A DNA stretch of 64,000 bases from Candidatus Bathyarchaeota archaeon (GCA_963707955.1 OY970176.1:992001-1056000), one strand, 5' to 3'; positions 5,177 through 62,621 are shown, counted from the stretch's first letter. Notes: generated by a model from the letters alone, not told the origin. A program made the numbers and translations.

Positions 5177-5662
5177 GGCCCTTATTTTGCACCGACACTG
5201 TCAGCACGTTTCAGGAACGTTCTAGGTAGCGCGCGCAAGAGAGCTTACACGCTTTGCATATACACTTTGCATATACGGTTGGCGAGGATAAGTGAAAAGC
5301 GCGCTATCAAAGTTGTTACGTTTGATGGAAACTTAGATCGCGCGTTAACATGGCGGAGCTAGTTTATGATTTGCTGAACTGCAAATTCAGCTTCCTATTC
5401 TGAGTCCTCGCCTAGGGACTGGTTAACATGGTTTTTGTTCTTCTTTTGGGGTTTGGGGACAGTTTCGGGTTTCGTGCGTGTCCATGCCTTCAATGGAAGC
5501 ATCTCTTTCCCAGAACACGGGAACGGAATTAAAACCATTTCTTACCATTTTCGGAAGAGACATACGTGCCATGCTTCGATGCCTCGGCTCTTGTGAGTGT
5601 AAATGCATTAACCTAAGTAGTTGTGCACAACGGTTAAGTATCTATCCAAGGAAATCAGGAGC

Positions 5663-6349
5663 ATGAATAAGATGGAAAAAGTGATACTTTCATGGAGTGG
5701 AGGCAAGGATAGCGCTCTCGCACTTTATGAGATTCAGAAAACCGACAGCTATAAAATACTTGGACTGCTGACAACGCTGACAAAAGATTATGATAGAATT
5801 AGCATTCACGGTGTGCGACGGACATTGCTCGAGAAACAGGCAGATTCCTTGGGTTTTCCTCTTGAGAAAGTGCTCATTTCAAAGAGCGCTTCAATCAAAG
5901 AATATGAATTTAAGATGAGTGAAATCCTTTCAAAATATTTGACTGTCGGGTTCTCCTCTGTAGTCTTTGGAGACATTTTTCTAGAGGATGTAAGAAAATA
6001 TAGAGAGGACTATCTGTCCAAGATGGGGATGAGAGGAATTTTCCCTCTATGGAAAAGGGACACCCATGAACTTGCTCACGCATTCATAGATTTGGGCTTC
6101 AAAGCGATTGTCACTTGTGTTGACTTAAACGTCCTTGACAAAAGATTTGCTGGCAGAATATTTAACGAGCAATTTTTGTCTGACCTTCCTTCGAGCGTTG
6201 ATCCCTGTGGCGAAAATGGAGAATTTCACTCATTTGTGTATGACGGACCGATATTCCAAGAGCAAATATCACATGAGATAGGGGAAGCTGTTTTGAGAGA
6301 AAATCGTTTTTACTACTGTGATTTAATACCCCTTCCAAAATCAATCTGA
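5663..6349 (+). CDS. PP-loop ATP pyrophosphatase (diphthine-ammonia ligase-like family)
   Basis: SWSGGKDS, FGDIFL and DPCGENGEFHS motifs. Confidence 0.88.
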   Translation: MNKMEKVILSWSGGKDSALALYEIQKTDSYKILGLLTTLTKDYDRISIHGVRRTLLEKQADSLGFPLEKVLISKSASIKEYEFKMSEILSKYLTVGFSSVVFGDIFLEDVRKYREDYLSKMGMRGIFPLWKRDTHELAHAFIDLGFKAIVTCVDLNVLDKRFAGRIFNEQFLSDLPSSVDPCGENGEFHSFVYDGPIFQEQISHEIGEAVLRENRFYYCDLIPLPKSI

Positions 6350-6753
6350 GCGCGCGCGTTTGCCCTGCCAAAGATGAAGAAGGCGATGCCGGAGTAAATC
6401 GGGTAGAACCATTCGACTGCAATCCAGTAACCTTTCGACAGAGTTATTTGCAGGTTTAAGACAAGGGCAACATCATCTAGGCTGATTAATGCGAGAGCGA
6501 AAAGATACGAAAGCAACACCAGCATGGTCACCACGTTGAATCTTAAGCCGCCCTTTACTTTGCCATAGAGCAAGAAAACCACAATTGAGGCAAGCGCGTA
6601 CAGGACATCAAGGGGCTTCCAGAAGGCATGTCCAAAAATCACATCTAGATTTCCAACGTAGCCTACTAAATGTGCATCTCCAAAAGTGAGTAAAATTAGG
6701 AGTGCACCGAAAGCAAGTGCTGTAATTTCGCTTTTGAAACCCATGTTTTCCAT
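6313..6753 (-). CDS. membrane protein (about 4 TM)
   Basis: Four hydrophobic segments. Confidence 0.7.
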   Translation of the reverse strand: MENMGFKSEITALAFGALLILLTFGDAHLVGYVGNLDVIFGHAFWKPLDVLYALASIVVFLLYGKVKGGLRFNVVTMLVLLSYLFALALISLDDVALVLNLQITLSKGYWIAVEWFYPIYSGIAFFIFGRANARAQIDFGRGIKSQ

Positions 6754-7106
6754 AACCTGAGCGTAAAAACAGCAGAAATACTGTTAAGTCTTTTGTGTTG
6801 ATCAGCGCGCGCGGCATCTTCTTGCCCAGTCATGATTACGCCTCATACTTCGGAGTTCTCGGCGCAGTATCACTTCTGTCAATGCCGCTGTATCCCCTGT
6901 GCGCTAAGTATCTGCGTAAGAACGCGAATAATCAATCGGAGCATGAAACGACAGTGCGCGCTGAAGCTTCAGGCTTTTGATCGTTGAAGCTTTTGTCCTC
7001 TCTTCGTCACTTCATTGCAGACGTATGCAACATTGAGGCAGTTTCAATCCCACGTTGATAATATTATGGTTTTACCGTCCTGACCGTAGAAAGCATCTTT
7101 GATTCC

Positions 7107-8015
7107 TTAGATGTGCGCGCGTTTACACTTTGGGCACAATCTGTTTCTTGACTTCTTGTCTTGGACGAATAGTCTGTTGCATCCAATTCCTTTCCCAGGA
7201 TGTGAGCAGACAAAAACTCCACGTCTTCTTTCGTCTTCGGTTTTGGCATAGACTGTCCAATAGATCTCCTTTATGACACCCGTGGGGCTCACCTCGCCGA
7301 TCTCAGCCATGGCATCGCTTCCCAATTCCCACCCGTGCCTAGTGGCCGGACGGATATCGCGGTCGGTAACGATTTCCTCACCGACTTGGGAGATGAGGAA
7401 GCTTTTGAATTGCTTGACATCTGGGTGAACACTGAAGTAGACGACCCTAGACACGTATCCGCCGGGGCAGACGTATGCTCCGATGACATTATCCGAGTCG
7501 GATCGCAGGTCTATGAAGGAGGAAGGGCTATCGCAGTGCCTGTAACATTGTCCCTCGAACGTTAGGTAAACTTCCACAAACTCCTTCAACGATTTACGAT
7601 GAGATGATGAGTGAGGATGCGAGATAGCCGGTTGTTTATGTGCGAGACTTTGATAGTAACTGCTCGAAAACAGCGCTTTCCAAGAACCTTCTGTCACCGA
7701 AACTGCCTCTGAAAAACCAGTTAATACGTGATCGACTCTCCCGTCCATGTGTTCAACAAAGACTTGAGGGATAAGATAATCCTCCGACCAATCGCCGTGT
7801 TCTTCGACGAGCCTGTCAGCTGCCTCAAGCTGCTCGGGGATCTCTATGTCAAGAGTAAGAAGCGGAACCCCAAGGTCTCTGGACATTTTGTTAGCATTAC
7901 GCAGAGAAAACGGTACACAGTGAGGACAATAATTCGCAAAAACGATAATGACTCGCTTAATCAATCCCCTGCGCCTCTCCCAGCTCCGCAACGACGCTCT
8001 TCGTCGCAGACACAA
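7107..8015 (-). CDS. thioredoxin-like CPHC domain fused to an unknown Cys-containing domain
   Basis: N-terminal YCPHC and IPQVFV; C-terminal Cys pairs including CPKC; start uncertain. Confidence 0.7.
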   Translation of the reverse strand: MCLRRRASLRSWERRRGLIKRVIIVFANYCPHCVPFSLRNANKMSRDLGVPLLTLDIEIPEQLEAADRLVEEHGDWSEDYLIPQVFVEHMDGRVDHVLTGFSEAVSVTEGSWKALFSSSYYQSLAHKQPAISHPHSSSHRKSLKEFVEVYLTFEGQCYRHCDSPSSFIDLRSDSDNVIGAYVCPGGYVSRVVYFSVHPDVKQFKSFLISQVGEEIVTDRDIRPATRHGWELGSDAMAEIGEVSPTGVIKEIYWTVYAKTEDERRRGVFVCSHPGKGIGCNRLFVQDKKSRNRLCPKCKRAHI

Positions 8016-8530
8016 TTAAAGACTTGCTACGAGGAGACGGACTTAGCATGTTATGTACCCAAAGCGCGCGCTGTATCATTTTTTTTGCACGGTCTGTAAT
8101 TTCGGCGCATGCGCTCAAATCAAGAGAATAAACGAATGAAAGGAACTATGAGGCACGCGTGAAGAGAATGCCATGCACCACGTAAGAGAGAAAGCTAGCG
8201 CGCTCGCAGGGACTTGAAACCCGCGGGGTGAATTTGTACTGTTTCCCTTTTTTTCTGTCACAGTACACATGCCTTTATGTTTATCAACATCGTCATTCAA
8301 CCCCCTCCTCTTTTTCTACGCCAGCGCAGTAGCCACCTAGCGAACACGCGCCAGAACCCTGTGAAATCACGTTTACCGACAATCTTATCGAAGGCGACTT
8401 TCAGTTCATTCAGCCATTACAAAAGTGTAGCGCGCGCTGGGTTTGGGGACGGGCAGTTCAGGTTTTTTCTCTATTATTTCTTGACCTTAATCGACACGCA
8501 CCAATTTACCAGTTAGAGCTCAGTTTTGAC

Positions 8531-14053: not shown

Positions 14054-14314
14054 AAAGCAAAACCTAGAAACCCAAACCACATTCCTTTTTTTGTCCAGTG
14101 TACATGCCTTTACGTCCATGGCTTTGTCCTTATCATACAGCGTGCGCGGCTGGGTTTTCGCGCGCGCGCTCGTGTCGAAAAATAGCAAATCTTGGGGTTC
14201 CATCAAATCCTGAACGGAGCAGTTTTCTCATAAACTGTAGAAGCTACACGTCCGAGATTTTTTCGCTGAAGGGAACTGCTCCTTTTTTCCTCTGCACGGT
14301 TTTTCTGCTTTTGT

Positions 14315-42779: not shown

Positions 42780-42788
42780 ATTGATGGT

Positions 42789-43651: not shown

Positions 43652-43658
43652 GTGGATT

Positions 43659-48569: not shown

Positions 48570-48579
48570 CTCTTGATTT

Positions 48580-48852: not shown

Positions 48853-48868
48853 GCTTGTTCACCCATTA

Positions 48869-49192
48869 TTACTTTGATGCCTCTGGGTATTTCTCTCTTA
48901 TCTTTTCGTCTGCTATCTTCGCGATCATCGCGCTGGAGATGAGCACGTGTTTGACGCCTCTGAGGTCAGCGAGGTCTGCGGGTTTCTGGTCCTGTGTGAC
49001 TAGCAAGAGGTTGTTTCTTCTTGCGTACTCGACTATGTCCTTGTCTTTCGCTCCTTTCAGGCCAGCATCCTGTGCGGTGACTGCTTCCCAGCCTAGGGTT
49101 TCAAAGTACTCTCTCAAGCCTGCGTACATTTCGTCGAGCAGAAGCTTCAATCCTGCCGCCTCTTCGGTCGGTCTTAGATGTGCAGTGTTCAC
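48869..49192 (-). CDS. Mut7-C/DUF5615 PIN-like protein
   Basis: LLLDEM, D.DIVEYA, LVTQD. Confidence 0.85.
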   Translation of the reverse strand: MNTAHLRPTEEAAGLKLLLDEMYAGLREYFETLGWEAVTAQDAGLKGAKDKDIVEYARRNNLLLVTQDQKPADLADLRGVKHVLISSAMIAKIADEKIREKYPEASK

Positions 49193-49224
49193 CTATTTAG
49201 ACGCTTCCACAAGTCTTGGCTGAC

Positions 49225-49500
49225 GCTACATCCCTGTATTCGCGTTTTGGCCTCGTCTATTCCACCCTCCCTCTCCCCCCCTAGGGTGTTAGTACTGCAC
49301 GTAGGCGTTCGTGAGGACCCTTCGGACTTGACGCGGGTCTGAAGAAAAGCGCGTAAGAAGGACTTGGCAGAGAGTCTGAGCAAGGATAGTGGCTTTCAAT
49401 GCATTTCAACATCAAGTCGCCTACTGGTTTCAGCTGCCCCTTGCAATTGCGGGCACGCCTGTCCCTTCCCTCTAGGGTGCCAGTTCCTTACTAGCCCGTA
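49225..49500. ncRNA. candidate structured non-coding RNA of unknown family
   Basis: No credible ORF; complementary pairs GTAGGC/GCCTAC, GACCC/GGGTC and GACTTGA/TCAAGTC (crossing); repeated pyrimidine tract plus CTAGGGTGYYAGT. Confidence 0.35.
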
Positions 49501-49598
49501 TCGAAGAAACTGCCGCATCCGGCATCTTTTGCTGTTTCGGCCGCTGGGAGAAAAGTCTTTAGGACGACAGGGCTTACGTAAGCTTGAGGTTGTAATGT

Positions 49599-50618: not shown

Positions 50619-50685
50619 AAATGAAAACGTTAGGAAAGCGTACTCGGTTCGAAAGCCAATCTGGCTTTGATGCGAAGTTGGGAAA

Positions 50686-50835
50686 GTGACAGGAAAGACG
50701 ACCACTTTGCCTTGCGGATGCAAGTATCAAGACGACGGATACGTGGTAGTCCGTGTCCATGAATGCGCCTACCACAAGGAGAGACGAACAAGAAAGCGAC
50801 CGTACCGGCCTAAGGCCGAGTGCGTGAGACCCTAA
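50686..50835 (+). CDS. putative small Zn-binding protein (49 aa, not in ORF track)
   Basis: Manual translation MTGKTTTLPCGCKYQDDGYVVVRVHECAYHKERRTRKRPYRPKAECVRP*. Confidence 0.5.
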   Translation: MTGKTTTLPCGCKYQDDGYVVVRVHECAYHKERRTRKRPYRPKAECVRP

Positions 50836-50997
50836 AGCCGCGAGCCAAACAGTTCACAGTCTTATGGGCAAGCGTCTGCGTATTGCGAAGCTGATTTCAG
50901 CGTCGAGCGTGCCTACAACTGGTTATTCCAAGGGTGTATTTGAACTCTTTATTTAGAAGACGCAAGATTAAATGAGCAAATCGTTCTTTTTCAGTAG

Positions 50998-51528
50998 TTG
51001 GAGTCCTTAAAGATGAGGATTCACATAGCGAACAAAGTTTCGATAGTCTTGATACTGATGGCAGGTGCATCTCTGGTCTCCATGCTTGCCACTCTCAACA
51101 TAGACCACATCATTCATCATGACCTGTACAACTACGGTCTTCAGTTCAGCCCACAATGGGCTGATCCGTACTGGAGGATGGCAGCAGTCGTATTCTCAAT
51201 GGGATGGTTCATCATTCTAACCTCGGTGGCGTTTGAACTTCATTTTGTTATGCAATGGCGGCGTAGACACATCGAGCCCCAAGCCCCATGCGTCGCCCAG
51301 GAACAGGTTCAAAACCAACCGCCAATAACTGAAACAAAACCGAGCGATAAATTGGAGGAGAAAAAAGCAGAAACAACGGCTGAGGAAGAAGCGAAAACAA
51401 CAGCTCTTGTCGCGGAGACCGAAGACGATCTTAGCGAGTTTCGCGTACTCCTTGAAGAGATATCTGTAAGGACGGATGAGCCTGTTACACGTCAGAAAGC
51501 AGATGACAGCCAAGCAAACGAGAAGTAG
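50998..51528 (+). CDS. membrane protein with acidic tail
   Basis: Two TM segments flanking DLYNYGLQFS..WA.PYW. Confidence 0.8.
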   Translation: MESLKMRIHIANKVSIVLILMAGASLVSMLATLNIDHIIHHDLYNYGLQFSPQWADPYWRMAAVVFSMGWFIILTSVAFELHFVMQWRRRHIEPQAPCVAQEQVQNQPPITETKPSDKLEEKKAETTAEEEAKTTALVAETEDDLSEFRVLLEEISVRTDEPVTRQKADDSQANEK

Positions 51529-51577
51529 TGTCGCGCGCGCTAGAGAGCGTTCGACTGTCTCACAAACAGGGTGTGCG

Positions 51578-51889
51578 CTAAGATGGTTTGACTAGAACAG
51601 TGGCCCTCAGCTCCGCATACTTCTTTTCAATATCTTGCTTGAAAGCTGTGATTTCTGACGCGAGTTTCATCTTTGTTTCTGCTTCGAGACTCGATTTCAT
51701 GATTCTTTCATCAATCTTTTCAATATCATGCAAAGTGTTGTGTTTCATTTCTTCAGTCTTCTTCAACGTTTCCACCTTCTTTTTCTCAATGTCTGCCAAT
51801 CGACTTCTGACATCCACTTCTCTCTTGTGAAATTCTTCTCGTGTTTTTGTAAGCTTCTTCTCAAGCTCGAAGATCTCACTCACTTCCAA
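51578..51889 (-). CDS. coiled-coil protein
   Basis: Charged heptad pattern; GGAGG RBS. Confidence 0.75.
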   Translation of the reverse strand: MEVSEIFELEKKLTKTREEFHKREVDVRSRLADIEKKKVETLKKTEEMKHNTLHDIEKIDERIMKSSLEAETKMKLASEITAFKQDIEKKYAELRATVLVKPS

Positions 51890-52454
51890 TCATCCTCCAG
51901 CATACTTCTAGGTCGTCGTCGAATAAGCTTTTCTTCAGGCCTGCCTGAAGCAAAGTCTATCCTATGCTTAAATAGCCATGCGCACGCGAATTAAATAATT
52001 GCCTTAGAGCGCATGCATGAAGTGCAGCGCGCGCAAAACCAGAAGGGTTCATGCTCAAAGCGCGTCCGCGCTAACATGGAGACGCGAATTCGTCAAGGTG
52101 AGAGGGCACTCTCAAGACCGATACAGAGACCTTAGGACAGGTCGTTTCATTAGGAAGCCTTAGAGCGCGCGCTGGCCTTGTATGTTATCTCCATTAGTGA
52201 TTGCTTGTCAGGATGACGAACAAATATTACGGAACAAGCGCTGTTTTCGCACAAGTACTTAGCCTTGCGTGTGCCCTTTTTCAACGGTTTCCCACATTCT
52301 GGACAATTAACCATCTTCAAATTCCCTATTGGATAACTAAAGAAGATGATGTAAAAATGTTATGAATCTCGGATAGTGAAGGAAACTCTGCTTCTGCTAG
52401 CGCGCGCCCAAAAGCTAAAAGCCAAGTGTTCAGAGAGAGTAAAAGGTGATTTGG

Positions 52455-52682
52455 ATGCCTACGGCATATTTGTTGATAAATTCAGAAGAATATCACCCAA
52501 GGTTGATGAAAGCATTGAGGGAGATTAAGGGAGTTGAAGAAGCTTATCCTCTCTATGGCGTCTATGACATCATTGTAAGAACAAGAGCGGGTACTATGGA
52601 CAGGCTTAAAGAAATACATGACAAGATAAGGAGACTGGAGAAAGTTAGACAGACACTGACGATGATCGCGCATGAAGGATAG
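52455..52682 (+). CDS. stand-alone Lrp/AsnC ligand-binding domain
   Basis: TAYLLIN...YGVYDII...KIRRLEKVRQTLTMI. Confidence 0.9.
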   Translation: MPTAYLLINSEEYHPRLMKALREIKGVEEAYPLYGVYDIIVRTRAGTMDRLKEIHDKIRRLEKVRQTLTMIAHEG

Positions 52683-52714
52683 AAAAGGTAGCGCGCGCTA
52701 GTAAGTAAGTAATT

Positions 52715-52850
52715 TCTGTGTCTGTTTGTTGTGTGTGACTCAGTCACTCTCACAGTCACAGGTTCTCTCAGACTCTCTCTCTTTGTGTGTCAGAGTATGA
52801 AGTAAGAGAGAGGTAGATAGAGAGAAAGAGTAACAGAAGAAGAAAAAGGG
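52715..52850. repeat. low-complexity TG/CT/AG dinucleotide tract
   Basis: Runs of TGTG, CTCTCT and AGAGAG seen directly. Confidence 0.7.
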
Positions 52851-52920
52851 TGAAGTTTTATCCAACCAACCACACACCATTTGGGGAAAAACCTCGCACG
52901 CGCGCTACGAAGGGTAACGA

Positions 52921-53355
52921 TTAGTAAGGTCGGGCGGGAATTCCCTTGATTTTGGCTTTAGGCGTCACATCTTTTGTGACTATGGCTCCAGCAGCTACGT
53001 TGGCCTCTTCTCCGATTGTGACTCCTGCGACAATGACAGCATTGGCTCCTATGACAGCTCCACGTTTTATAGTGACTGGCTTGACTTGCCAATCATCCCA
53101 ATGCTTCAAGAGGTCTGGATGCTTGTCATTCGTTACCGTCGTATTAGGACCAACGAACACATAATCCTCGATGACCGTTCCTTGAGGAATGAATACATGC
53201 GCTTCAATTTTGCAGTGAGAGCCGATTTTAGCTCCGCCTATTTCGACAAAACTCGCAATTTTAGTGCCTTCACCAACCTCACTGTCATAGATGTTAACAA
53301 GCTCAGGATGATGGATTTTGACTGAGGAATGAATTTTGCAACGTTCTATCGGCAT
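52921..53355 (-). CDS. hexapeptide (left-handed beta-helix) acetyltransferase, WbpD-like
   Basis: VFVGPN...TND, IGANAVI..GVTIG, AAGAIVTKDV, G.PAR. Confidence 0.92.
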   Translation of the reverse strand: MPIERCKIHSSVKIHHPELVNIYDSEVGEGTKIASFVEIGGAKIGSHCKIEAHVFIPQGTVIEDYVFVGPNTTVTNDKHPDLLKHWDDWQVKPVTIKRGAVIGANAVIVAGVTIGEEANVAAGAIVTKDVTPKAKIKGIPARPY

Positions 53356-53731
53356 GACGATTATTACTCATGGCTCTGCTTAATTGCATTTCGTCTGAGA
53401 ATAACTGCGAGGTAAAGGCTAATTATGACTATTGGGAGATCGCTCTATCTGCCAAGATACAGAAATGTTTCTTCCGACCACGTTTATGGACCGAGCTCGA
53501 CAAAATTCTACGGACTCAGTTCTGCTTTACCTGTTTGCAGAGTAGGCTTTGCAGACTGCAGATTCGTATAGGCGGGCTTACGAACAACCCCAGGAGAGGT
53601 GGAATGATCTGTTTCTAGCGTGCGCGCTCCTTGCGAGGCGCCGCGCGCGCTAAATGGGTTCAAGTCCAAACTTAAAGAATAGGGAAAAGCCATGTCCGAT
53701 AGGCGCGCATACGTGTTCCTAAATTCGGCTT

Positions 53732-53935
53732 TAGCGCGTATGCCTGTTCCTAAATTCAGTTCAAGAGCTGGCATGGCGTTTTGCGACGAGGGATTGTTAC
53801 TGTCATGGTTCGAGCCGCTTGCTCTCTTGCTCTCACGCCCTCCTCCCCGGGTATCCTATATGATCCAAATATGGTTCATGAGCAAAGTAGGACTAGCTGC
53901 TCCCCGAAAGAATTTAGGAACACGCTAGCGCGCTA
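53732..53935. mobile_element. MITE-like element, copy 2, with an extra orphan end at 53703-53726
   Basis: TAGCGCGTATGCCTGTTCCTAAATTC ... GAATTTAGGAACACGCTAGCGCGCTA; inverted homolog of 31158-31361. Confidence 0.85.
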
Positions 53936-54005
53936 ATCCTTATCCAAGATTAATAACGTTTTTCTCCTTTGCGTGCGTCAATAGAATGTTGGAATGTGGG
54001 TACTT

Positions 54006-54455
54006 ATGAACGTGCGGGAACTGATGATCACGAACGTAATCACCGTAGAAAAAAACATGACGGTGCAGCTGGCTGCGGGTACCATGAACAAGAAGAGAAT
54101 AGGCTGCTTGGTGACCGTTGACGGAGAAGGAGTGAAAGGAATCCTGACAGAAAGAGATATGCTAGTTAGAGTCTTGGAAGCAGGCAAAGATCCCAAGACA
54201 ACCAGGGTCTCAGACGTTATGACCCAGAGCATTATTTTCGGGAATCCAAACATGCAACTAGTTGAAGCCACGCGTTTAATGTTTCAAAACGGGATTAAGA
54301 AGCTGCCAATACTAGAGGACAATCGATTGGTCGGCCTAGTCACGCTGACCGACATAGCTCGCGCGACAAGCTGCGACAAGAAAACCATTGATCTCATTGA
54401 AGCACTGTCAAACATGCACAAGATCAGCTCATCCCAACAAGACATCAGCGTATGA
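54006..54455 (+). CDS. CBS domain protein
   Basis: Tandem CBS motifs GILTERD and VGLVTLTDI. Confidence 0.93.
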   Translation: MNVRELMITNVITVEKNMTVQLAAGTMNKKRIGCLVTVDGEGVKGILTERDMLVRVLEAGKDPKTTRVSDVMTQSIIFGNPNMQLVEATRLMFQNGIKKLPILEDNRLVGLVTLTDIARATSCDKKTIDLIEALSNMHKISSSQQDISV

Positions 54456-54933
54456 ACACGTACATAAGCGCACGCTTCTATTCACGCGCGCTACGCGCCA
54501 TCTCGCACTCGGCAAAGTGTGTGAATCAAGGCCCCTTGCGCAAACGCAGGACAAGCGAGGGATGATCGAAGAAAGCTCGGGACACTAGCAGTAATTCTGG
54601 AGAGAATCTATTAGCATCTTCAAACCAAAAAACGTGGAGTTTTCTCTTCAAAGTATTCTATTGTAATACATAGGTATTACTTCATGCGCGCGGGCTGATA
54701 TCACTGTCACGCTAGTCGAGAAACTGGTAGTATATGAAAAGTCTTTTATTCGCCTGCTTCACAGACATTGAAAGCTAGGCACGCGCGCAGCATATCTTGA
54801 GTACACGATGTGATTGTGTGAGTAGCAAAGATGGTTTGTGCTTTGTAGAGCTGGACGCCTAAGGTTGAGGGTGAGAGTTGAAAGAAACTTCTGAGAACAG
54901 TCTTTCTTGGACCCTGAAGGAGCAGGATCTCTT

Positions 54934-56214
54934 ATGCTGACCTGGCCATATATCGGATTAGTCTGCACGTTCGTCATTGTCTATGCATGGTCGTTCTATA
55001 ATCTGCCAATTTTGGTGGCAGGCGTAAAGAGTCTACGGCAAAGCAAACAAAAGCCCGGCAGAAAGCCTGCTGAAAGAAAAGCTTTTCCAGGTTTTTCAAT
55101 AATTGTGCCAGTGAAAAATGAGGAAAAAGTGGTAGGCAGATTGCTGAATGCTTTGTCCGAGTTGAATTATCCTGCAGACAAGAAGGAAATAATAATCGTT
55201 GAGGATGGTTCGACCGATAGAAGCCTTGATGTGTGCGAAGCCTTTGCTAGGGAGCAAAGGCTGAACATAAGAATTGTTCAAAGACGGTTTTCTGATGGTA
55301 AGCCCTCGGCCTTGAATAGTGGTATCACTTATGCGCAGGGCGAAATAGTAGGCGTTTTTGACGCAGACAGTGTTCCTGCAAGCGATGCTCTGTTGAACGT
55401 TTGCAGGTACTTCGAGGATCCGCAGGTGGCGGCAGTTCAGGGTCGAACACTGTCGATTAACTCTGAGGAAAACATGCTGACCCGAATCATTTCACGAGAG
55501 GAGGACGTTTGGTGTGAAGCATATTTGCGCGGCAAAGACGCTCTGAACTTGTTTGTCCATTTGAAGGGAAGCTGTCAGTTCATCAGGCGAGATGTTCTGA
55601 AACAGGTAAATGGCTTTGATGAGAATGCCTTATCTGAGGATATGGAGCTTTCAGCGAAGACAACCGAAAAAGGCTACAAGATCAAGTATGCCCCAGACGT
55701 AAGATCGTGGCAGGAGAGCCCATATGAATTAAAGCAGTTATTCAGGCAGCGCACTCGTTGGTTCAGGGGAACCATGGAAGTGGCCCTGAAGTATGGTCGA
55801 TTGATGGCCAAGCCGAGCAAAAAGAGCTTTGATGCCGAAGCGACTCTCTTTGGGCCCTTTGTCTTAATAGCATCGTTGCTGACGTACATTGCGTCTTGTT
55901 ACGTGACGTTCACGCCTTTTCCGCTGGGTGTTTTGTTGCAGATCATGGCAGAGCTGACAGCGCTGGGCGCCACCGTCATTGTACTTCTTTGTGGCCTAGC
56001 CCTGCTCTACACGTCGAAGCCCAGAAAAGCATCAGACCTGCTGTGGGTCCCATTCGTCTATGCCTATTGGAGTGCGCAGGCTTTCATCGCACTTTATGCA
56101 ATGCTGCTTATGATGCTACGCAGGCCGCGCAAGTGGTTGAAGACGGACAAAAAAGGATCGATTACGCGTGCTACTTCCAACTCTGTTATCATGAAGCCGC
56201 AAGAGTACGTTTGA
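54934..56214 (+). CDS. GT2 membrane glycosyltransferase (cellulose synthase-like)
   Basis: EDGSTD, KPSALN, DAD, SED and QRTRW motifs. Confidence 0.95.
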   Translation: MLTWPYIGLVCTFVIVYAWSFYNLPILVAGVKSLRQSKQKPGRKPAERKAFPGFSIIVPVKNEEKVVGRLLNALSELNYPADKKEIIIVEDGSTDRSLDVCEAFAREQRLNIRIVQRRFSDGKPSALNSGITYAQGEIVGVFDADSVPASDALLNVCRYFEDPQVAAVQGRTLSINSEENMLTRIISREEDVWCEAYLRGKDALNLFVHLKGSCQFIRRDVLKQVNGFDENALSEDMELSAKTTEKGYKIKYAPDVRSWQESPYELKQLFRQRTRWFRGTMEVALKYGRLMAKPSKKSFDAEATLFGPFVLIASLLTYIASCYVTFTPFPLGVLLQIMAELTALGATVIVLLCGLALLYTSKPRKASDLLWVPFVYAYWSAQAFIALYAMLLMMLRRPRKWLKTDKKGSITRATSNSVIMKPQEYV

Positions 56215-56326
56215 GGTGTTGATAGGCGGCGTGAACATTAAGAATAGCAATCCCAGACGGCTGGCATTTTGACGGAAAAGTTGAGCAACTGGGCGTACCC
56301 CATATTAAGACAGAAGCGATGACCGG

Positions 56327-57802
56327 ATGAGCTTAAAATCCTTGCCTCGTCGTGCCTCCGCTGATTCAAGAATTTTCGTTGTTCTGGCTTTTCTAGGACC
56401 ATTTGTAGCGCGGCTATTGCCCGAATTACTGATGGGGCCATTCATGACCGGTTTTGACACTGTTGCATACTATGTTCCTAGAACTTTAAGCTGGATCCAA
56501 GGAGGAAGCAGTTTTGTTCAGATCATGGCTTATCCGCCTTTGTTTTATGTCTTACCTGTCCAATTGAGTCTTTTCGGCATTCCATTGACTTGGTCGTTGA
56601 AAGTTCTGCCGCCTATCTTGCTTGGCTTTCTAGGACTTGCTGTCTACGTCTATGCGAGAAAGGCTCTTGTCTGGTCGCACCTTGAAAGCCTCGGTGTTTC
56701 ATGCTTGGCGACTTTGTATTTCGTCAGCTTGAGAATTTCTTGGGACATGCTCAGAAGCGAGCTGGGACTGATTCTGTTTTTTGTCTTTTTGATGTTGCTG
56801 CATACTGGTTGGGAGAGGAAGAATTGGCAGAGTTTTCTGTTATCATTATTTATGGTTTTGGTTGCGCTCTCCCACCAGCTCGTGGCTTTGATAATGTTTT
56901 CAGTAGTTCTCGCGCTCTGCATCCAGAAACTGTCGAAGAAGGAGCACGATGCTTTCGGGAGATTAGTTGTTGCAACACTGCCAAGCTTGGCTGTTTTCGG
57001 TTTGATCCTGGGTGCCGACTATGTTGTTTCTTTGGGTTTTTCAACAACGAGTGCGAGTCAATGGTTTTCATTATTTGAGTTTTCGTCATTTTCTGATGCG
57101 CTGATTGGCACAGTTGGGTTTTGGCTGTTCTGCTTCTTGCCGCTGTTGCCCTTTGCATGGGTTGGGTGGAAGAATTTTAGTAACTTAGAGTTGAAAACTT
57201 GGATCCTTTGGTCTCTAATCGGTATTTTGCTCGGAATCGGAGCTTCGTCTGGGTTGTTTCCGATGAGTTACAGGTGGACCTTGCTGATGTCTTTCCCAAT
57301 GGCTTTTTTTGCCATTGAAGGCATCAAACATTTCAGGTTTCCTCGTCTGAGGCTGTTTCTAAGCGGGGTCTTAATCCTCTTGAGCTGCAGTTTCATGTTC
57401 TTGCCTGCCGAGCTGGCTTTTCCATATTTCAGTTTGTTCCCCAAATACGTTCCATCATCTATGCTACAGAACAGTGTGCCCTTGAGCGATTGTGAGGATG
57501 TCGTCAGGGTCATGTCTTGGTATGGTCAGAATGTTGGAGCCAGCGGCACTCTGCTCCTTCACGACGCGTTCAGCGGATGGGCAGACTTGTATTTGAATGC
57601 TGGTTGCCGAGTCGTCGATTACGGTTATGAGAACCCTCAAGCAGCAGCCGAAAAGTTGGTGGCAGATGGACCTGGAAGTGTATACGTAATCTGGTGGGTT
57701 CCTGGTGAAGGCTGGCATGGTTTAAGCAGCCTGCCCTCTAGTTTCTTTGAGGTTTTTAGGAGCGGTAGAATTGCTGTTTATGAGTATAACAATACTGCTT
57801 AA
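56327..57802 (+). CDS. multi-pass membrane protein, probable GT-C glycosyltransferase
   Basis: GFDT..YY and YPPLF followed by about 12 TM segments and a soluble tail. Confidence 0.75.
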   Translation: MSLKSLPRRASADSRIFVVLAFLGPFVARLLPELLMGPFMTGFDTVAYYVPRTLSWIQGGSSFVQIMAYPPLFYVLPVQLSLFGIPLTWSLKVLPPILLGFLGLAVYVYARKALVWSHLESLGVSCLATLYFVSLRISWDMLRSELGLILFFVFLMLLHTGWERKNWQSFLLSLFMVLVALSHQLVALIMFSVVLALCIQKLSKKEHDAFGRLVVATLPSLAVFGLILGADYVVSLGFSTTSASQWFSLFEFSSFSDALIGTVGFWLFCFLPLLPFAWVGWKNFSNLELKTWILWSLIGILLGIGASSGLFPMSYRWTLLMSFPMAFFAIEGIKHFRFPRLRLFLSGVLILLSCSFMFLPAELAFPYFSLFPKYVPSSMLQNSVPLSDCEDVVRVMSWYGQNVGASGTLLLHDAFSGWADLYLNAGCRVVDYGYENPQAAAEKLVADGPGSVYVIWWVPGEGWHGLSSLPSSFFEVFRSGRIAVYEYNNTA

Positions 57803-57864
57803 CCAGTTGGAATAATCCTGAAAGTGCTTTCGGTCCATTTTTCCAAATGCCATCTGTGCGCGCT

Positions 57865-58671
57865 TCAGGAAGGCCGGGCAATCACGAGTATGCCCGTGCA
57901 CATGTTCTTAGCTATGTGTTCCAAAAACTTGAAGGATCGCCAATTTTCTAACCCATAGGAATTGATCACTTTGAATCCATTGTCCTCAAGCAAGTCTGTG
58001 AGAGAGTATAAAGTGAAAGGACGAATGTGTCCAGCGGGCTTCCACGTGTCGAGTCGTTTCTTTAAGAATTCCATTCTGTATCCATAACTCAGTTTTTTTG
58101 TTGACACCTCTGTATTAATTGGCTGAATGCCCAAGGGCACAAGGATTCGATTCTTCCAGCAAACAGTGTTCAGTGTTGTGACAAGCAAGATGCCATCTTT
58201 CGAAATTGAGTCCCTCATTGATAGAACAAGAGAATCTGTGTCGAAGATATGCTCAATTGTCTCAAAAATCGTGAATACTTGAAAATCTCGTAGCGGAATC
58301 GGTTCTGAACCAAGATCGAGACGAATAAATTCGATGTTCTGTCTGTTGCATTGTTGTTCACACTGAGCTGACGCGTCAACTCCCACTGTTTTAATGACCA
58401 TCTGAGTCGTTTTTCCTAAGAAATCTGCAAAAGCTCGTGTGCCTCTGCAATCGCCGCATCCCAAGTCAACGTAGTTTATCGATTTTCGGTTTTTCCTCCA
58501 AATGTTTCCAGCGTCTTCGAAGAACTTTTGTACCCAAGCAATTGAAGCTACTTCAGAGTATCTTGGAGGCGTTAATTCATATCTGTCTCTCTTGTCCCAG
58601 AAGGTTTGTGATGCTTGTAGGCCAAGTCCCTTCGGTTTTGCTTCATCCACTTGGGCGTTTCTCCTTGTCAA
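57865..58671 (-). CDS. class I SAM-dependent methyltransferase
   Basis: VDLGCGD, ETIEHI, GHIR.FT. Confidence 0.9.
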   Translation of the reverse strand: MTRRNAQVDEAKPKGLGLQASQTFWDKRDRYELTPPRYSEVASIAWVQKFFEDAGNIWRKNRKSINYVDLGCGDCRGTRAFADFLGKTTQMVIKTVGVDASAQCEQQCNRQNIEFIRLDLGSEPIPLRDFQVFTIFETIEHIFDTDSLVLSMRDSISKDGILLVTTLNTVCWKNRILVPLGIQPINTEVSTKKLSYGYRMEFLKKRLDTWKPAGHIRPFTLYSLTDLLEDNGFKVINSYGLENWRSFKFLEHIAKNMCTGILVIARPS

Positions 58672-61588
58672 TTCGTCTAGATAGGACTGAAGATATCTTC
58701 TTCCTAAATGGCGTAATGGCTATTATTAATATTAAGTAGGTAAAACCTATCGACACTGCTGTCAATCCAATTGTCATTTGCGAGCTTGTTGTGCCTATGA
58801 GTATGTTCGTTTCTTTTGAAGCCAAACTTGTCCCATTTACGATCCATGCCTTGAAAAAGACATTCGCCTGCACCTCCTCACTGGCGGCAGGTGTTTCCAT
58901 TTCTTGAAGCCCATTGTATAGATATTGATCTACAACTGCGTAGTCTGATCCCCCGTTCAAAACAGTCATAGCGGACCCTTCAGAACTATCCTGTTGAACT
59001 GAGAAAACCGGTTCTTCATGAACTTGGCGCACAGCGAATAATCCTAGAATGTCTGCGGTTTGTACGTGAATTCCTGAAAACTTGGAGATTGAGGCTTCAG
59101 AAGATAAGGAGACGGTGGAGAGATTTGGCTCTGTTGGAAAGGACATTTCCAAATTGTTATTGACGTAGACTTTGACTTCGTCGAATGTTCGGCTTAAGGT
59201 TACATTGATTGGATTATTCTCTCCCATGAGGTCATGGCCCACATATGTAGTTATCACGTCAGAAGTGTATGAATCACCCTGCTGAACTGCTAGTTCCAGG
59301 AAACCGTTGTTATGGAAAATTACGAAGTACTTGGAGTTGCCTGTATCTATTAGCGCCCTGGGCCCTTGAAAATCATATTGACCCCATCTGGAAACGTTGA
59401 CTGTAAAGTTGAGCATGAAGCTACCGTACGTGCCTAGGGGAAACGAAGTTGAATTAAGAACCAAATCATCAAATTGGTGAGTGTCAGCCCACGTGTTTGA
59501 ACTTGGGACTTTGACGATGTCATCTGCAGACAATTGACAATCGGTTGAAAACACGTCGACGTTGCTCGAGGTCGCTAACTTGTTTAGAGTGAGAGTTTCT
59601 ATGTTTTCGCCATTGAATGTTACTGTCAAATTCAGACTAGCAACTGAACCATCATATGTGGGCCTCAATGCATACATTTGGTAGGTATCGTTGTTGACAA
59701 AACTCGGGATGCTGAGCTGATTGATTTGTTCTTCGGAATTCAGAAATACAGGTAGATCTTGGAAGTCTATCAGTTGAAAAGCATATTTCAGCGTGCTTGT
59801 GTCATCGTAGAAGACATAGTTTCTTGTTGCGTACAGAGTGGGCAGACAGTTTTGGTTTTCAAAAATTGTGTAGTTGCCTTGCTGCTCTAGGAAATGCAAT
59901 CCGCTGTCGTTTTCTATGTCGTCAACAACGCTTGTAATGTTGTTGTTGAAAGATTCAGGAAATATCAATAATTCGTTTGGCTGGAAAACTTTGCTTACGA
60001 CCACGTACTTCGCAGAGAAGAGACCCAGAATCTTGCTCCAAGGAACAGAGGCTCCGTCAGTCAGTTCCAATGTTTGGTCATTCACATTGGACACCAATTG
60101 GAAAAGACGGAAGTTTGGAGGGAGATAAAGCTCTGCCTTGTGAGTGTATGGGATTAGTACTCCTCTATCATTGGAATAGTTCTGGCTCAGGAGGTTCGCA
60201 AGCTTCGAATATCCAGTGTCGAACAAGTTTCCCCATTGTAAATTATCTGAAATCTGCTGTAGAGGAGTATATCCGGCATAACTGATGAGCCATGGACTGT
60301 TGTACAGGACAACCGATGCGACTAAAAGTATGACTGCAGTTCCTTTGGCGATTCTTTTTTTTCTGGTTTTTCCGTAGGTTTCAAGTTTTTTGAAGGCGAC
60401 GAAAGTTGTTGTTAGTAATGACAGGAGGAGGATAACACGAAGTTCGGTGGGGCTTTCCCATGTTTGAAGTATGAAGCTGAACAATTTTCCCGCTAGAATG
60501 GGATCATTTGGTAGGTACTTAATGAATTCTATTAGGATGATGGAGTTGACGAACACAAGAATGTTCATATAGAAAAATGCTTTGTCTGTTTGCGCTACGT
60601 CTTTTCGCAAAAAGAGAAGCAGAATTGATGCGAGAAAAACAATGAATAGAGCATATCCGAATAGATTCGTGTAGGCGCTTGAGTCGTACCATGAATTTTG
60701 CCCCAAACCTACTCCAGAGTCTCCTCCAAGCCTGAATAATGTGACAGGGTTTGCATTCGCGTAGCAATATTGAATGTTGGACAGAAAATTGCCGAGGTTC
60801 CCTTTAAAGTAGGTTGCAAGAGGAGCGAAGTTGATGTTGTTGACGGACAAGATTAGGGGAGCGTTGACTATAATAAAAACGAACACAAACAAAACTACGT
60901 TAGTTACTGATGCCCTCACGAAGCAACGAGTTTGGCCGTACTTCCGAAGACAAATTACGACAAAAGTCGATACTAGGTATATTGAGATAAGGGCGGCTGA
61001 AAGGAAGAACTGTTCATGAGCTGAAACAGAAAGTGACAAAAACATCGCGCTTATCAGAAAATTTCTTGATAGACGACCTGGGTTGGACTGTTGGCTTATC
61101 TCACGTAAGGTTCTTATGAAGAATTTCAGTGCCAGCGGTAGAAACACCATGACAAATGCGTAAAGCATTGAGGCAAAATAGTACGGAGTTATTGGATTGA
61201 TAACATACATTGCTGAAACGATGAGACACCAGAACTTCTTGGTGAGAAACTCTCTAGAAAAAGTGTAGAATGAGAGCATCGAAAGGAAGTACAATAGGAA
61301 AGGATAGATCAGAGTCAGAGGAATGCTCAGGGCGTTTAAGAGGTAAGACAGTGGAAACAGGAAACCAGTCCTGAACGTAGAAAGGACGGCGATGTCGCCC
61401 AAGTATGATTCTCGTATCACTTTGGGCCCTAGGATGTCGACTATAGTCTGCTTGGTCCAATAGACGTTGTCGCCAATTACAAGACTTGGCAACGTTAGCA
61501 CGTTGTACGTAAGAAATATGGATAGGATGAGTAGCACAGCAGCTATGATGGAGAAATGGCAAATAGCCCTAAGTCGTTGATGTTTCAT
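58643..61588 (-). CDS. large multi-pass membrane protein (GT-C/AftD-like) with an extracellular lectin-like domain
   Basis: N-terminal TM bundle, Asn/Ser/Thr-rich beta domain, C-terminal TM; located in a glycosylation cluster. Confidence 0.75.
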   Translation of the reverse strand: MKHQRLRAICHFSIIAAVLLILSIFLTYNVLTLPSLVIGDNVYWTKQTIVDILGPKVIRESYLGDIAVLSTFRTGFLFPLSYLLNALSIPLTLIYPFLLYFLSMLSFYTFSREFLTKKFWCLIVSAMYVINPITPYYFASMLYAFVMVFLPLALKFFIRTLREISQQSNPGRLSRNFLISAMFLSLSVSAHEQFFLSAALISIYLVSTFVVICLRKYGQTRCFVRASVTNVVLFVFVFIIVNAPLILSVNNINFAPLATYFKGNLGNFLSNIQYCYANANPVTLFRLGGDSGVGLGQNSWYDSSAYTNLFGYALFIVFLASILLLFLRKDVAQTDKAFFYMNILVFVNSIILIEFIKYLPNDPILAGKLFSFILQTWESPTELRVILLLSLLTTTFVAFKKLETYGKTRKKRIAKGTAVILLVASVVLYNSPWLISYAGYTPLQQISDNLQWGNLFDTGYSKLANLLSQNYSNDRGVLIPYTHKAELYLPPNFRLFQLVSNVNDQTLELTDGASVPWSKILGLFSAKYVVVSKVFQPNELLIFPESFNNNITSVVDDIENDSGLHFLEQQGNYTIFENQNCLPTLYATRNYVFYDDTSTLKYAFQLIDFQDLPVFLNSEEQINQLSIPSFVNNDTYQMYALRPTYDGSVASLNLTVTFNGENIETLTLNKLATSSNVDVFSTDCQLSADDIVKVPSSNTWADTHQFDDLVLNSTSFPLGTYGSFMLNFTVNVSRWGQYDFQGPRALIDTGNSKYFVIFHNNGFLELAVQQGDSYTSDVITTYVGHDLMGENNPINVTLSRTFDEVKVYVNNNLEMSFPTEPNLSTVSLSSEASISKFSGIHVQTADILGLFAVRQVHEEPVFSVQQDSSEGSAMTVLNGGSDYAVVDQYLYNGLQEMETPAASEEVQANVFFKAWIVNGTSLASKETNILIGTTSSQMTIGLTAVSIGFTYLILIIAITPFRKKISSVLSRRIDKEKRPSG

Positions 61589-62184
61589 GTAACTATCTCT
61601 TAGACAGATTCCCGTTTCAGCTCATTTTTTCTACGTATGATATAAATCTATATACTTGAGCACCATTCGGTTCAGGTTGAATTGTTCTGATCTTGAGATT
61701 CTGTCTGTCCTCGCTAGCGCGCGCACCAGAATAAACACAACATTTCTTTGTTCAAGACGCCATTCCCTTCAAAGAATGTTTCATGAGCCATGCTGGAGAG
61801 CGATTTTTGGTCGCTCAGCTATACTCTTCAGATAGATGCACGCACCATTAAGCCTGTGAGTATCGGTGGTGAAGGTGTTGAGCCTGTTATCCAAGTCCAG
61901 CTTAGCGCGCGTGAACTAGCATGCGCAGGTCTAATACGAATTAGTTTTTCTGGTATTGGCTATCTTTTGGAAAGAAATTAAGTGCGATGACTATTCCTTT
62001 AAGTACTTGACAACTCCATTTGCAAAACCTGGGTCACTCTTGTGGGAAAAATCTTTTATTCATAAGCCGTTAACCCTAGATAGTTTGGAGCGTTCGGAGG
62101 CTGCAGTTATAATCAGAGATGGCACGTGTAAACCGTCGAATGCTTTACATGTGTCAGGTCACGACAGTTTTGATTTTGGCAAGG

Positions 62185-62360
62185 GTTGTTTGGTTAGGCT
62201 GAAGTTGAAGGCTCTCCGATCAGGCGTATGGTTTCGGACGTTAAAAAGAATCGATCGAGTCCTCATTGACGTAACCTTGCAGGTTGCCAGCAGAATTCGA
62301 AGCCCAATCCTGTTGAAAACGCCGTTGCCCGTTGTGACACAGTCAAAAAACTCTTTGGCG
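62185..62360 (+). pseudogene. fragment of a putative conserved hypothetical gene
   Basis: LVRLKLKALRSGVWFRTLKRIDRVLIDVTLQVASRIRSP..L reads as protein-like and loses coherence at the GCGCGCGCGC run (62358). Confidence 0.35.
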
Positions 62361-62621
62361 CGCGCGCTGTTTGACGGCAACGCAAGCAAAAACTCATATA
62401 TTCTGTCAGAAGAAATGTTTCTTGGGTGGGGGTATCAATCTACTCACGGCGCACAAGCGAAGATGTCACTGTTATTCCTTACGCCGCAAATTCGACTTCA
62501 GATAGAGCTCTGAGAGATGTACCACTAAACACGGGTGAAGTTTACTCGATATGGTATGCTAACGAAGAAGTACAAGGTTTCAAGATGATACATTCCGACA
62601 ATAGCATCGAGATTTTCCAAT

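Follow-up and report, generated by a model that had tools for sequence, protein, structure and literature searches.

The highly iterated palindrome of cyanobacteria, HIP1 (GCGATCGC), is common inside genes and is linked to cognate methylases, and repetitive extragenic palindromes (REPs) are imperfect palindromes of 20-40 nt with a GTAG head that lie outside genes, often past gene ends, act as targets of insertion sequences (ISs), and co-occur with a RAYT gene. Integron attC sites are imperfect inverted repeats of 57-141 bp, carried in one orientation in one array adjacent to the IntI integrase; the fillers left by known end-joining pathways vary in sequence, and the instability of Z-DNA-forming (CG)n has been reported for much longer tracts. 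Here, we report a short palindrome, tAGCGCGCGCTa (10-12 bases, octamer core GCGCGCGC), hereafter the motif, from a 64,000-nt stretch of Candidatus Bathyarchaeota archaeon (GCA_963707955.1 OY970176.1:992001-1056000), which we refer to as the window, and from the genome that contains it. The motif is almost restricted to non-coding DNA that varies between strains, the homology of close species breaks off at it, and it stands alone where a segment of the other genome is missing. We tentatively read this self-complementary sequence, tA(GC)4-5Ta, as marking joints of DNA that was broken and rejoined, with a linker written or regenerated at the rejoined ends, and we give this reading a little under an even chance.

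The motif resembles HIP1 in being an octameric G+C-rich palindrome and the top over-represented word, in being lineage-specific, and in that function and origin are unsettled; it differs in being 33 times rarer in open reading frames (ORFs), in sitting at indel joints, and in that its genome has no match to C5 methylase (PF00145). With REPs and bacterial interspersed mosaic elements it shares a short palindromic form, hundreds of copies, an extragenic position often past gene ends, and use as an IS insertion target, but the archaeal unit measures 10-12 nt with no longer consensus, and the RAYT transposase Y1_Tnp (PF01797) was matched in 0 of 31 genomes, a search in which control genomes gave matches. 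As in integrons, single small genes stand between recurring palindromic joints and the same cassette has different neighbours in relatives; unlike in integrons, the joint spans 8-12 bp, copies occur genome-wide (0-25 per 50 kb) and in both orientations, and most solo motifs replace DNA that has no end sites. A literature search, with subscription journals outside its coverage, found no description of the motif.

The window corresponds to G000:C1:992001-1056000, where G000 is the host genome, assembled as one contig of 2,346,764 bp with 47.9% G+C. Counting overlapping matches, we found GCGCGCGC 18 times in the window, versus a mean of 0.78 and a maximum of 5 in 100 dinucleotide-preserving shuffles, and 464 times in all of G000, versus 25-34 expected under Markov orders 0-3 (z = 74), so that it ranked first among octamers. 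The next-ranked octamers were extensions of the motif itself, for example AGCGCGCG and TAGCGCGC. Other palindromic octamers made only of G and C were not enriched in G000 (for example GGCGCGCC, 20 versus 22-34 expected), and the Markov models, the shuffles, and these other G+C-rich palindromes at expectation together rule out a compositional artefact. Alternating G/C runs of at least 8 nt numbered 455 in G000, comprising 267 of 8 nt, 130 of 9 nt, 56 of 10 nt, and two of 11 nt. With 15 runs in 64 kb, compared with one per 5.2 kb genome-wide, the window is a typical sample of a genome-wide feature. Copies were found all round the chromosome and were densest in islands where both G+C and coding density are low, while no origin- or terminus-scale pattern was seen in 50-kb counts.

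The first-pass annotation of the window had drawn attention to GC runs at 16 positions, and all of them are present, displaced by 0-2 nt. Fifteen are runs of 8-11 nt containing GCGCGCGC, and the remaining one, at 7115, is a 7-nt run; for the shorter versions that had been mentioned near 40751 and 57865, the sequence has GCGCGC runs of 6 nt, at 40760-40765 and approximately 57859-57864. That annotation had proposed that such runs mark junctions of accessory genes, and had suggested counting them against a Markov background split by coding and intergenic DNA, for which the outcome was the extreme excess described above, mainly in non-coding DNA.

In the flanks of 231 exact 8-nt runs, A stood at position -1 in 166 and T at position +1 in 162, with a weaker T at -2 and A at +2, and past -2/+2 the aligned runs held no sequence information. 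Because information is confined to these flanking positions, the motif is a free-standing tA(GC)4Ta. In the non-coding DNA of G000, A(GC)nT was observed 97 times versus 187 expected for n = 2, 55 versus 16 for n = 3, 96 versus 1.4 for n = 4, and 19 versus 0.12 for n = 5, and n = 6 did not occur. Variants with one mismatch were 1.2- to 5-fold enriched in the same non-coding DNA. Ten-mers adjoining runs of at least 8 nt recurred at most three times in G000 and at most twice in G080, a more distant motif-rich genome described below. The flat flank logo and the lack of recurrent neighbours rule out a MITE (miniature inverted-repeat transposable element) or a longer repeat containing the motif.

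Using our own crude ORF caller (2152 ORFs, 79% of G000), we found that 362 of 419 runs containing GCGCGCGC lay wholly outside called ORFs, 43 inside, and 14 straddling an ORF end, such that motif density was 0.77 per kb outside ORFs versus 0.023 per kb inside, a 33-fold difference. Motifs lay within 15 nt of a stop in 11.2% of cases and within 15 nt of a start in 1.0%, where random intergenic positions gave 5.1% and 5.7%, respectively; convergent spacers were slightly richer in motifs than others (1.05 per kb versus 0.68-0.74). The proximity to stop codons proposed in the first-pass annotation was thus seen in part: three of the 15 window runs (6350, 51532, and 52691) lie at most 8 nt from a called stop, and the genome-wide effect is a modest, 2-fold one.

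To the closest relative, G001 (approximately 93% identity in shared blocks), we compared 1.89 Mb (approximately 79%) of sequence, namely all of contigs C1-C13, 20 kb from the start of each of C14-C21, and 5 kb of C24; like the other relatives used here, G001 is a metagenome-assembled genome. The alignment gave 296 non-overlapping blocks covering 51.6% of G000. Intergenic motifs numbered 337 in 295 kb of unshared DNA (1.14 per kb) versus 39 in 192 kb of shared DNA (0.20 per kb; p = 2e-36), which makes motif density 5.6-fold higher in unshared than in shared non-coding DNA. The reciprocal count agreed, in that 43 of 259 motif runs in G001 lay wholly inside blocks, although 63.5% of the sampled G001 sequence was aligned. 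The window followed the same pattern and bore out an impression recorded earlier, that motifs are scarce in core blocks: 14 of its 15 runs lie outside the blocks shared with G001, which cover 15325-38869 and 39448-50926 almost continuously, and one (5229) lies at a block edge.

Block ends coincided with motifs more often than expected by chance. Leaving out ends within 300 bp of the end of a contig or sampled stretch (17 of 592 in G000), 65 of 460 intergenic block ends in G000 were at most 5 bp from a motif, versus 1.4% of random intergenic positions (p = 2e-43), and 42 of 460 were inside one, versus 0.8% by chance. In G001, 46 of 575 block ends were at most 5 bp from a motif, versus 0.2% of random positions. 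The association with synteny breakpoints that had been anticipated is therefore strong in both genomes, and the junction-signature interpretation of the first-pass annotation is supported, under which the motif may be a scar or a recombination site, a cause of shuffling or a residue of it. Of 30 motifs situated 15 nt or more inside shared blocks, 15 were kept and 15 were changed in G001, approximately the neutral expectation at 93% identity (0.93^8 = 0.56). About half of the changed ones had lost the whole run or had it replaced, and two of the kept ones differed as (GC)4 versus (GC)5.

We defined simple indels as collinear gaps with one side of at most 25 bp and the other of at least 60 bp, and 99 of 220 collinear gaps qualified; gaps are cited below by their row in the G000/G001 comparison, and X denotes a segment present in one genome and missing opposite. 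The empty allele contained an exact motif in 24 of the 99, versus 3.1% of random 50-nt intergenic windows (p = 4e-15), and a one-mismatch motif in 16 more, versus 6.9% of random windows. The longest GC run at empty sites was bimodal, with 26 of 99 at 8-10 nt versus 2.1 expected. A typical pair reads flankL-(A)GCGCGCGC(T)-flankR opposite flankL-X-flankR, with X of 160-3700 bp. The letters inserted at joints, typically (A)GCGCGCGC(T/TA), were not derived from the flanks, and 17 of 19 X segments without MITE ends were free of the motif at both edges.

Polarity was assessed by searching five further species of the genus with X-bearing loci and then reading the joints. In row 51, a 3.3-kb X is syntenic in G001, G003, G009, and G004 and is thus ancestral, while G000 and G007 lack it and carry a motif at the joint; the right ends of the two joints agree within 1 nt and the left ends lie approximately 105 bp apart, which on the joint sequences is a nested one-sided further deletion that retained the motif. 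For rows 211 and 212, most of X is also found in G007 and more distant species, so it is largely ancestral and the G000 motifs mark deletions. In row 38, neither X nor motif is present in G004, G008, G009, G003, and G007, whereas a 2.6-kb X with a multi-copy repeat at its end occurs in G001, and G000 carries A+GCGCGCGC and 13 further nt; the simplest history, as read from these alleles, would be an insertion followed by a deletion that left the motif. Rows 116 and 217 had three states, namely the motif only, one segment (X1), and a different segment (X2) or an unrelated 10-mer. Specifically, in row 217 direct GCGCGTG repeats border the X1 of G000, a single motif stands in G001, and a different segment, of 2.4 kb, is present in G007. 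In row 79, a 3-kb segment with mobile repeats is inserted in G000 exactly at the right edge of the motif, while G001 has the same motif alone and G007 has a degenerate form, CGCGGCCGT. For a few events, then, new copies arose at deletion joints without an ancestral run, and existing copies persisted while DNA on one or both sides was lost or replaced. The data establish the motif as a mark of insertion and deletion joints in accessory DNA, and existing copies as hot spots for adjacent loss, gain, and replacement.

In the reaction that we propose, breakage and rejoining would insert or regenerate the motif as a short palindromic linker: every rejoined end would bear A(GC)n, and the tails, being self-complementary, would anneal. 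A site made in this way may be fragile or may be re-cut, and scars would then prompt further deletions and insertions and accumulate in accessory islands. A linker origin combined with a fragile or re-cut site would account for the de novo scars, the nested one-sided deletions, the three-state sites, and the build-up in islands. Among the closest parallels are the fillers of Ku-LigD non-homologous end joining (NHEJ) and microhomology-mediated end joining (MMEJ), which likewise are short non-templated insertions at joints of deletions from a few nt to kb in size, and G000 encodes the Pol-Ku-ligase/phosphoesterase set; here, in contrast, the insertion is one constant palindrome, and Ku does not co-occur with it across 251 genomes. 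An end-joining case for comparison is primase-mediated MMEJ in Saccharolobus (PMC12019639).

Several observations weigh against a written linker. Approximately 60% of indels carry no motif, and at least one deletion, specific to G007, used plain GTCGAC microhomology with no motif. Two sites show equal-length replacement, which is awkward for a simple filler: at G000 1647583, G003 has TCGAGACC instead of the motif, and in row 116 G007 has CTTCCCCCAT where G000 has AGCGCGCGCG. Moreover, the derived insertions of rows 38 and 116 in G001 have no edge motifs, and we know of no precedent for a filler of constant sequence. The polarised events number five or six, with G000, G001, and G007 lacking a settled branching order, and the counts come from a crude ORF caller and a comparison over approximately 79% of G001. 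Finally, no candidate generator enzyme emerged among the families profiled (Ku, DDE_Tnp_1, DDE_3, DDE_Tnp_4, Y1_Tnp, and C5 methylase), a set that left tyrosine/serine recombinases, TnpB, Cas1, and N4/N6 methylases outside.

Ku, the natural candidate from end joining, did not hold up. In a first sample of 31 genomes (G000, 10 other species of the genus, and 20 genomes from other genera of the family and order), Ku (PF02735) was matched in G000 and seven of the 10 other genus genomes versus one of the 20 others, and the protein looked linked to the motif there, since G000 has a Pol-Ku-ligase/phosphoesterase operon. In a class sample of 251 Bathyarchaeia genomes (at least 80% complete), in which genomes with at least 10 motif copies and at most five copies of a reversed-pattern control were classed as motif-rich, Ku was matched in six of 23 motif-rich genomes versus 64 of 228 others (odds ratio 0.9, p = 1). 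Its 70 occurrences among the 251 were concentrated in families f24, f34, and f1. A Ku/NHEJ generator, promising among 31 genomes, was thus rejected by the larger sample, a further point against the linker reading. The operon itself, at G000:C1:957178-960233, approximately 32-35 kb upstream of the window start, is an end-joining operon encoding a LigD-type primase-polymerase of 247 aa (profile positions 1-214 of 254), a Ku protein of 281 aa, and a 464-aa fusion of an ATP ligase with a LigD 3'-phosphoesterase; a DUF72 gene comes after them.

The motif is spread patchily. In the first sample, AGCGCGCGCT had 7-92 copies in all 10 other species of the genus and 0-1 in the 20 genomes of other genera. 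In the class sample, the 23 motif-rich genomes included all five genomes of f35 (13-131 copies), the majority of those of f26 (up to 119), a single f36 genome with 83 copies, and four other genera of the window's own family. In the first 400 kb of G080 (f35, 39% G+C), there were 124 matches versus 1-5 expected, again the rank 1 octamer; 73 of 84 runs lay outside crude ORFs, with flanks A..T and TA..TA and lengths up to 14 nt, and no recurrent sequence adjoined the GC runs in G080. In a phylum sample of 301 genomes, the 12-mer TAGCGCGCGCTA was also multi-copy in a genus of another class, g110, where eight of 12 genomes carried it, at 35, 28, 26, 14, 11, 9, 4, and 1 copies; the carriers are G277, G305, G333, G379, G347, G354, G385, and G298. 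Because g110 lies outside Bathyarchaeia, the phenomenon extends beyond that class. An agent that moves horizontally is suggested by this patchy occurrence in unrelated lineages. A bolder form of the linker reading, possible though in our view doubtful, is that several archaeal lineages (families of Bathyarchaeia and at least one further genus of the phylum) share an undescribed break-and-rejoin activity that writes a constant, self-complementary A(GC)4-5T into its joints, with the linker, fragile or re-cut in its turn, driving nested deletions and small-gene capture in either orientation, the motif being a legible record of what genomes lost and gained, and the generator being a new kind of repair or recombination enzyme spread horizontally. 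Separately, in the same G080 stretch (G080:C1:1-400000, L202-L221), the next octamers were AGCTAGCT, TAGCTAGC, and GCTAGCTA, with 44, 37, and 34 copies versus 7-8 expected; they form a second iterated word, palindromic or tandem in type, of that genome.

The main rival to a linker is an as yet unidentified site-specific nuclease or recombinase with the palindrome as its core site, in which staggered cuts would insert segments either way and duplicate the site, and site-site recombination would delete what lies between; as a cassette-joint system of this kind, the motif would be the cause of the rearrangements instead of a scar. We consider it unlikely, although it explains the arrays and orientation changes better than does break-and-rejoin writing. 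Arrays are found in the window at 51.5-53.7 kb, where six motifs separate single small genes, and in G007, where loci L001 and L009 hold 15 motif matches in 3.9 kb and 17 in 4.6 kb, respectively. In the window, the segment between the motifs at 51532-51540 and 52027-52034 (51541-52026, minus strand) holds a 103-aa ORF (51578-51889) with no Pfam match and is 94% identical in G004 and 89% in G009, compared with approximately 70% for core genes, an identity so far above the core that recent transfer is implied. After a further copy at 52165-52172, which overlaps the last codons of a small zinc-ribbon ORF, the segment 52173-52399 (minus strand) comprises a multi-copy 56-aa zinc-ribbon gene and its upstream region, and homology stops at a GC run on the upstream side in five of 10 aligned copies (four distinct). 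The motif at 52400-52407 forms the joint to the next segment, 52408-52690 (plus strand), which holds a 78-aa gene for an Lrp/AsnC ligand domain (52446-52682) and ends at the motif gtaGCGCGCGCtag (52691-52698), 8 nt past the stop at 52682; this segment is 94% identical in G007 and motif-bounded there too, with different neighbours. In G007, the AsnC-type and zinc-ribbon segments are adjacent and motif-bounded, and they differ from G000 in order and relative orientation. The single-gene shuffling proposed in the first-pass annotation accordingly has instances, as window genes between motifs recur in other species with other neighbours and in the other orientation, but just a handful of cases were read, and the window cassettes are examples rather than a count.

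The zinc-ribbon ORF itself (CPEC..C..C; 52150-52320, minus strand) has a conserved upstream region and occurs in several copies each in G009, G007, G001, and G004. As the agent behind the motif, this multi-copy gene was rejected: it was not found in four of five distant motif-rich genomes, and the fifth gave only E = 0.003.

A recombining site would also be in keeping with the direct GCGCGTG repeats around X1 in row 217, with the retention of the motif in one-sided nested deletions, and with a phyletic patchiness typical of mobile systems. Against it, 17 of 19 non-MITE X segments have no edge motif, and where X was polarised as ancestral, motifs arose where no site was. Moreover, motif sites drift at about the neutral rate, and the families profiled were either absent or did not co-occur with the motif.

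Some X segments are themselves ISs or MITEs, with ends of the form GCGCGC-(ATGC/TAGC)-KTGTTCCTRAATT. A 1.05-kb IS copy at G000 389080-390150 carries a split IS5/IS4-type transposase with DUF772 and DDE_Tnp_1 domains, and open transposase frames spanning the IS match measure 341 aa in G003 and 329 aa in G009. G/C runs at element borders were 6 + 6 in 22 of 56 end pairs, and border-run sums were 12 (24 cases), 13 (seven), and 14 (two), that is, the solo lengths of 8, 9, and 10 plus 4. Of four polymorphic MITE sites with a findable empty allele, the 8-mer is seen in three (exactly in one, with one mismatch in two), no run in one, and a bare TA in none; in row 36, G001 has approximately 510 bp and a MITE in a split motif where G000 has the motif alone, and rows 120, 137, and 172 show further split-motif IS/MITE borders with an intact motif in the empty allele. 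An IS5-family IS and its MITEs thus insert into the motif, in agreement with the first-pass suggestion that it might be the target of a mobile family, and targeting of the motif by the IS is the simplest reading of the split-motif borders. The border sequences would fit a 4-bp GCGC duplication upon insertion, turning an 8-nt site into 6 + 6, but the run-length arithmetic alone fits precise excision equally well.

That ambiguity bears on a second rival, in which the motif is the excision footprint of cut-and-paste transposons with GCGC ends, made when the flanking duplication and a few end nucleotides from each side are rejoined. We regard this as quite improbable. Its likeness to Tc1/mariner footprints lies in short palindromes with TA flanks, in IS5-family elements bordered by half-motifs, and in empty sites that show the motif. 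Specifically, IS5-type borders read tA-GCGCGC on both sides, so that four nucleotides per end plus TA would give TAGCGCGCGCTA, all three readable empty MITE alleles with a GC run were motif-type and none was a bare TA, and the flanking-run sums equal the solo lengths plus 4, although that arithmetic suits insertion into a motif with a 4-bp duplication just as well. A difference is that there are motif-rich genomes without the IS or any adjoining repeat. IS/MITE end patterns matched 52 times in G000 and 88 times in G001, versus 0-2 times in G004, G008, and G009, and these IS-poor genomes still carry 39, 56, and 82 copies of AGCGCGCGCT; neither DDE_Tnp_1 nor the IS protein was matched in G004 (93% complete) or G008. 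Across the class sample, DDE_Tnp_1 (PF01609) was matched in 13 of 23 motif-rich genomes versus 87 of 228 others (odds ratio 2.1, p = 0.12). An IS5-type transposase as a necessary generator was rejected on these two counts. MITE ends were the only recurrent neighbours of short G/C runs in G000 and G001, whereas the dense motifs of G080 have no recurrent adjoining sequence. Additionally, DDE_3 (IS630/mariner) and DDE_Tnp_4 (Harbinger) were each matched in 0 of the 31 genomes, as was the Y1 transposase, and joints of the row 51 type have no TA flanks.

Two observations concern the elements themselves. In the window, an IS5-type MITE of approximately 180 bp (53734-53933) has ends reading ..GCGCGt-ATGCCTGTTCCTAAATT .. 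AATTTAGGAACACGCTA-GCGCGC, flanked by half-length GC runs, and a solo MITE end lies just upstream at approximately 53703-53727. Elsewhere, a 1.75-kb insertion at G000:C1:1559002-1560752, absent from G001, has MITE-type ends, sits in a motif, and contains no transposase; it encodes a 284-aa MEDS-domain protein and a 107-aa ORF, and because it holds these genes without a transposase, it looks like a passenger-carrying IS derivative.

A selected functional site, whether bound by an abundant protein, acting as a terminator or insulator, or forming a Z-DNA element near accessory genes, seems very unlikely to us. Palindromic 10-mers do suit dimeric proteins, alternating G/C is the classic Z-forming sequence, and the 2-fold excess near stops, the depletion near starts, and the slight excess in convergent spacers also speak for it. 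Positions relative to genes are broad, however, variable non-coding DNA holds the motif at 5.6 times the density of conserved non-coding DNA, its retention in shared blocks (15 of 30) is about neutral, and sister genera have 0-1 copies. Z-DNA tracts share with the motif the alternating G/C and adjacent deletions with one end fixed at the tract; their instability would explain fragility, but not de novo runs of exactly 8-10 nt. Least probable of all is a HIP1-like origin, in which methylation-linked or biased mismatch repair would convert near-matches to the palindrome and selection would clear it from genes: the octameric, lineage-specific, top-ranking word, the 1.2- to 5-fold enrichment of one-mismatch variants in non-coding DNA, and the equal-length replacements at two sites speak for it, but C5 methylase was matched in three of the 31 genomes and not in G000, GCGC and CGCG are not enriched and AGCGCT is depleted, exclusion from ORFs is 33-fold, and whole-run indels at joints of rearrangement account for approximately half of the losses and gains, a pattern not expected from conversion. 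Nor does the motif behave as a DNA uptake sequence, which would be over-represented all through the core genome and its genes: it is 5.6-fold rarer in shared than in unshared non-coding DNA and nearly absent from ORFs.

On the methylase side, while PF00145 had no match in G000, an N6/N4 DNA methylase gene lies in variable DNA of the window at 1006-2184, within a segment that differs between G000 and G001 (gap 992802-996017; 3215 bp versus 2367 bp). Because this segment differs between the two genomes, the gene is probably part of a mobile restriction-modification unit.

The remaining motif copies in the window lie as follows. The copy gtaGCGCGCGCaag at 5229-5236 has as its first base the end of a G001-shared block (4018-5229). 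A 9-nt copy at 6350-6358 immediately follows the stop of a diphthamide-synthase-like ORF (5621-6349) in DNA unshared with G001, and another 9-nt copy (6805-6813) is also in unshared DNA. The 7-nt run GCGCGCG at 7115-7121 is the exact start of a block (7115-8041) that matches the non-syntenic G001 contig C3, where the neighbouring blocks match C13, and it lies 7 nt from the stop end of a minus-strand ORF (7107-8015); the copy at 8064-8071 lies 22 nt past the other end of the same block. Two further copies are in unshared DNA, namely gtaGCGCGCGCtgg at 8430-8437 and an 11-nt copy at 14159-14169, the latter 105 nt past the stop of a 1341-aa PKD-domain ORF. In row 84, a 231-bp segment (29221-29451) contains (GC)5 at 29304-29313 mid-segment, while G001 has a lone GCGCGCGC between the same flanks.

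Synteny with G001 and G007 ends at 50926, and the 35.6-kb non-collinear stretch that begins there (50927-64000 within the window) contains eight of the 15 window copies. The first of these, the 9-nt copy at 51532-51540, lies 3 nt past the stop of the ORF 50998-51528 and opens the cassette array discussed above, which closes with a 9-nt copy at 53642-53650 followed by a tRNA 3'-end-like stretch. Farther along are ctaGCGCGCGCacc at 61717-61724, 128 nt upstream of a minus-strand 981-aa ORF (58643-61588), and a (GC)5 copy at 62358-62367. Four public runs of one study carry the window as short-read contigs. Their only listed joints, both at repeats, with sides below 30 and nothing drawn from them, were 52686->53532 (one contig, side 21) and 53727->53910 (one contig in each of two runs, side 25), and in X4 there is a loose end past 52686 that is similar to the G007-type neighbour, which is anecdotal.

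Stretches resembling a tRNA T-arm and 3' end, GGGTTCAAGTCC and GGGTTCGAGTCC, adjoin motifs both in the window (53655-53672) and in L001 (G007:C9) at approximately 3800-3950. They resemble integrase attachment-site remnants, and the G000-specific 3.5-kb insertion of row 184 abuts such a sequence. Among known RNA families, the window contains rRNA and tRNAs only. Its 23S rRNA gene (36718-39758) is preceded by tRNA-Thr (36264-36340), and since no 16S rRNA gene is present anywhere in the 64 kb, the rRNA genes appear to be unlinked. A C-rich dispersed repeat of approximately 180 bp (..CCCTCTCCCCCCCTAGGGTG..) at 49223-49400 recurs dozens of times in G001 and G007, at 74-89% identity; in the public runs, contigs are approximately 5-fold deeper there, and short-read contigs break at it.

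Whatever the mechanism, the motif can serve to spot accessory islands and indel joints in assemblies of Bathyarchaeia, and it is a safe-haven target for an IS5-family element. Its patchy distribution is a clean phyletic signal by which the gene responsible could be sought through co-occurrence. Should the motif be written at rejoined breaks, each copy would be a dated mark of a deletion or insertion, which would point to end-joining or recombination chemistry not yet described in archaea and would give a direct read-out of gene loss and gain in uncultured, globally abundant archaea of sediments and soils.

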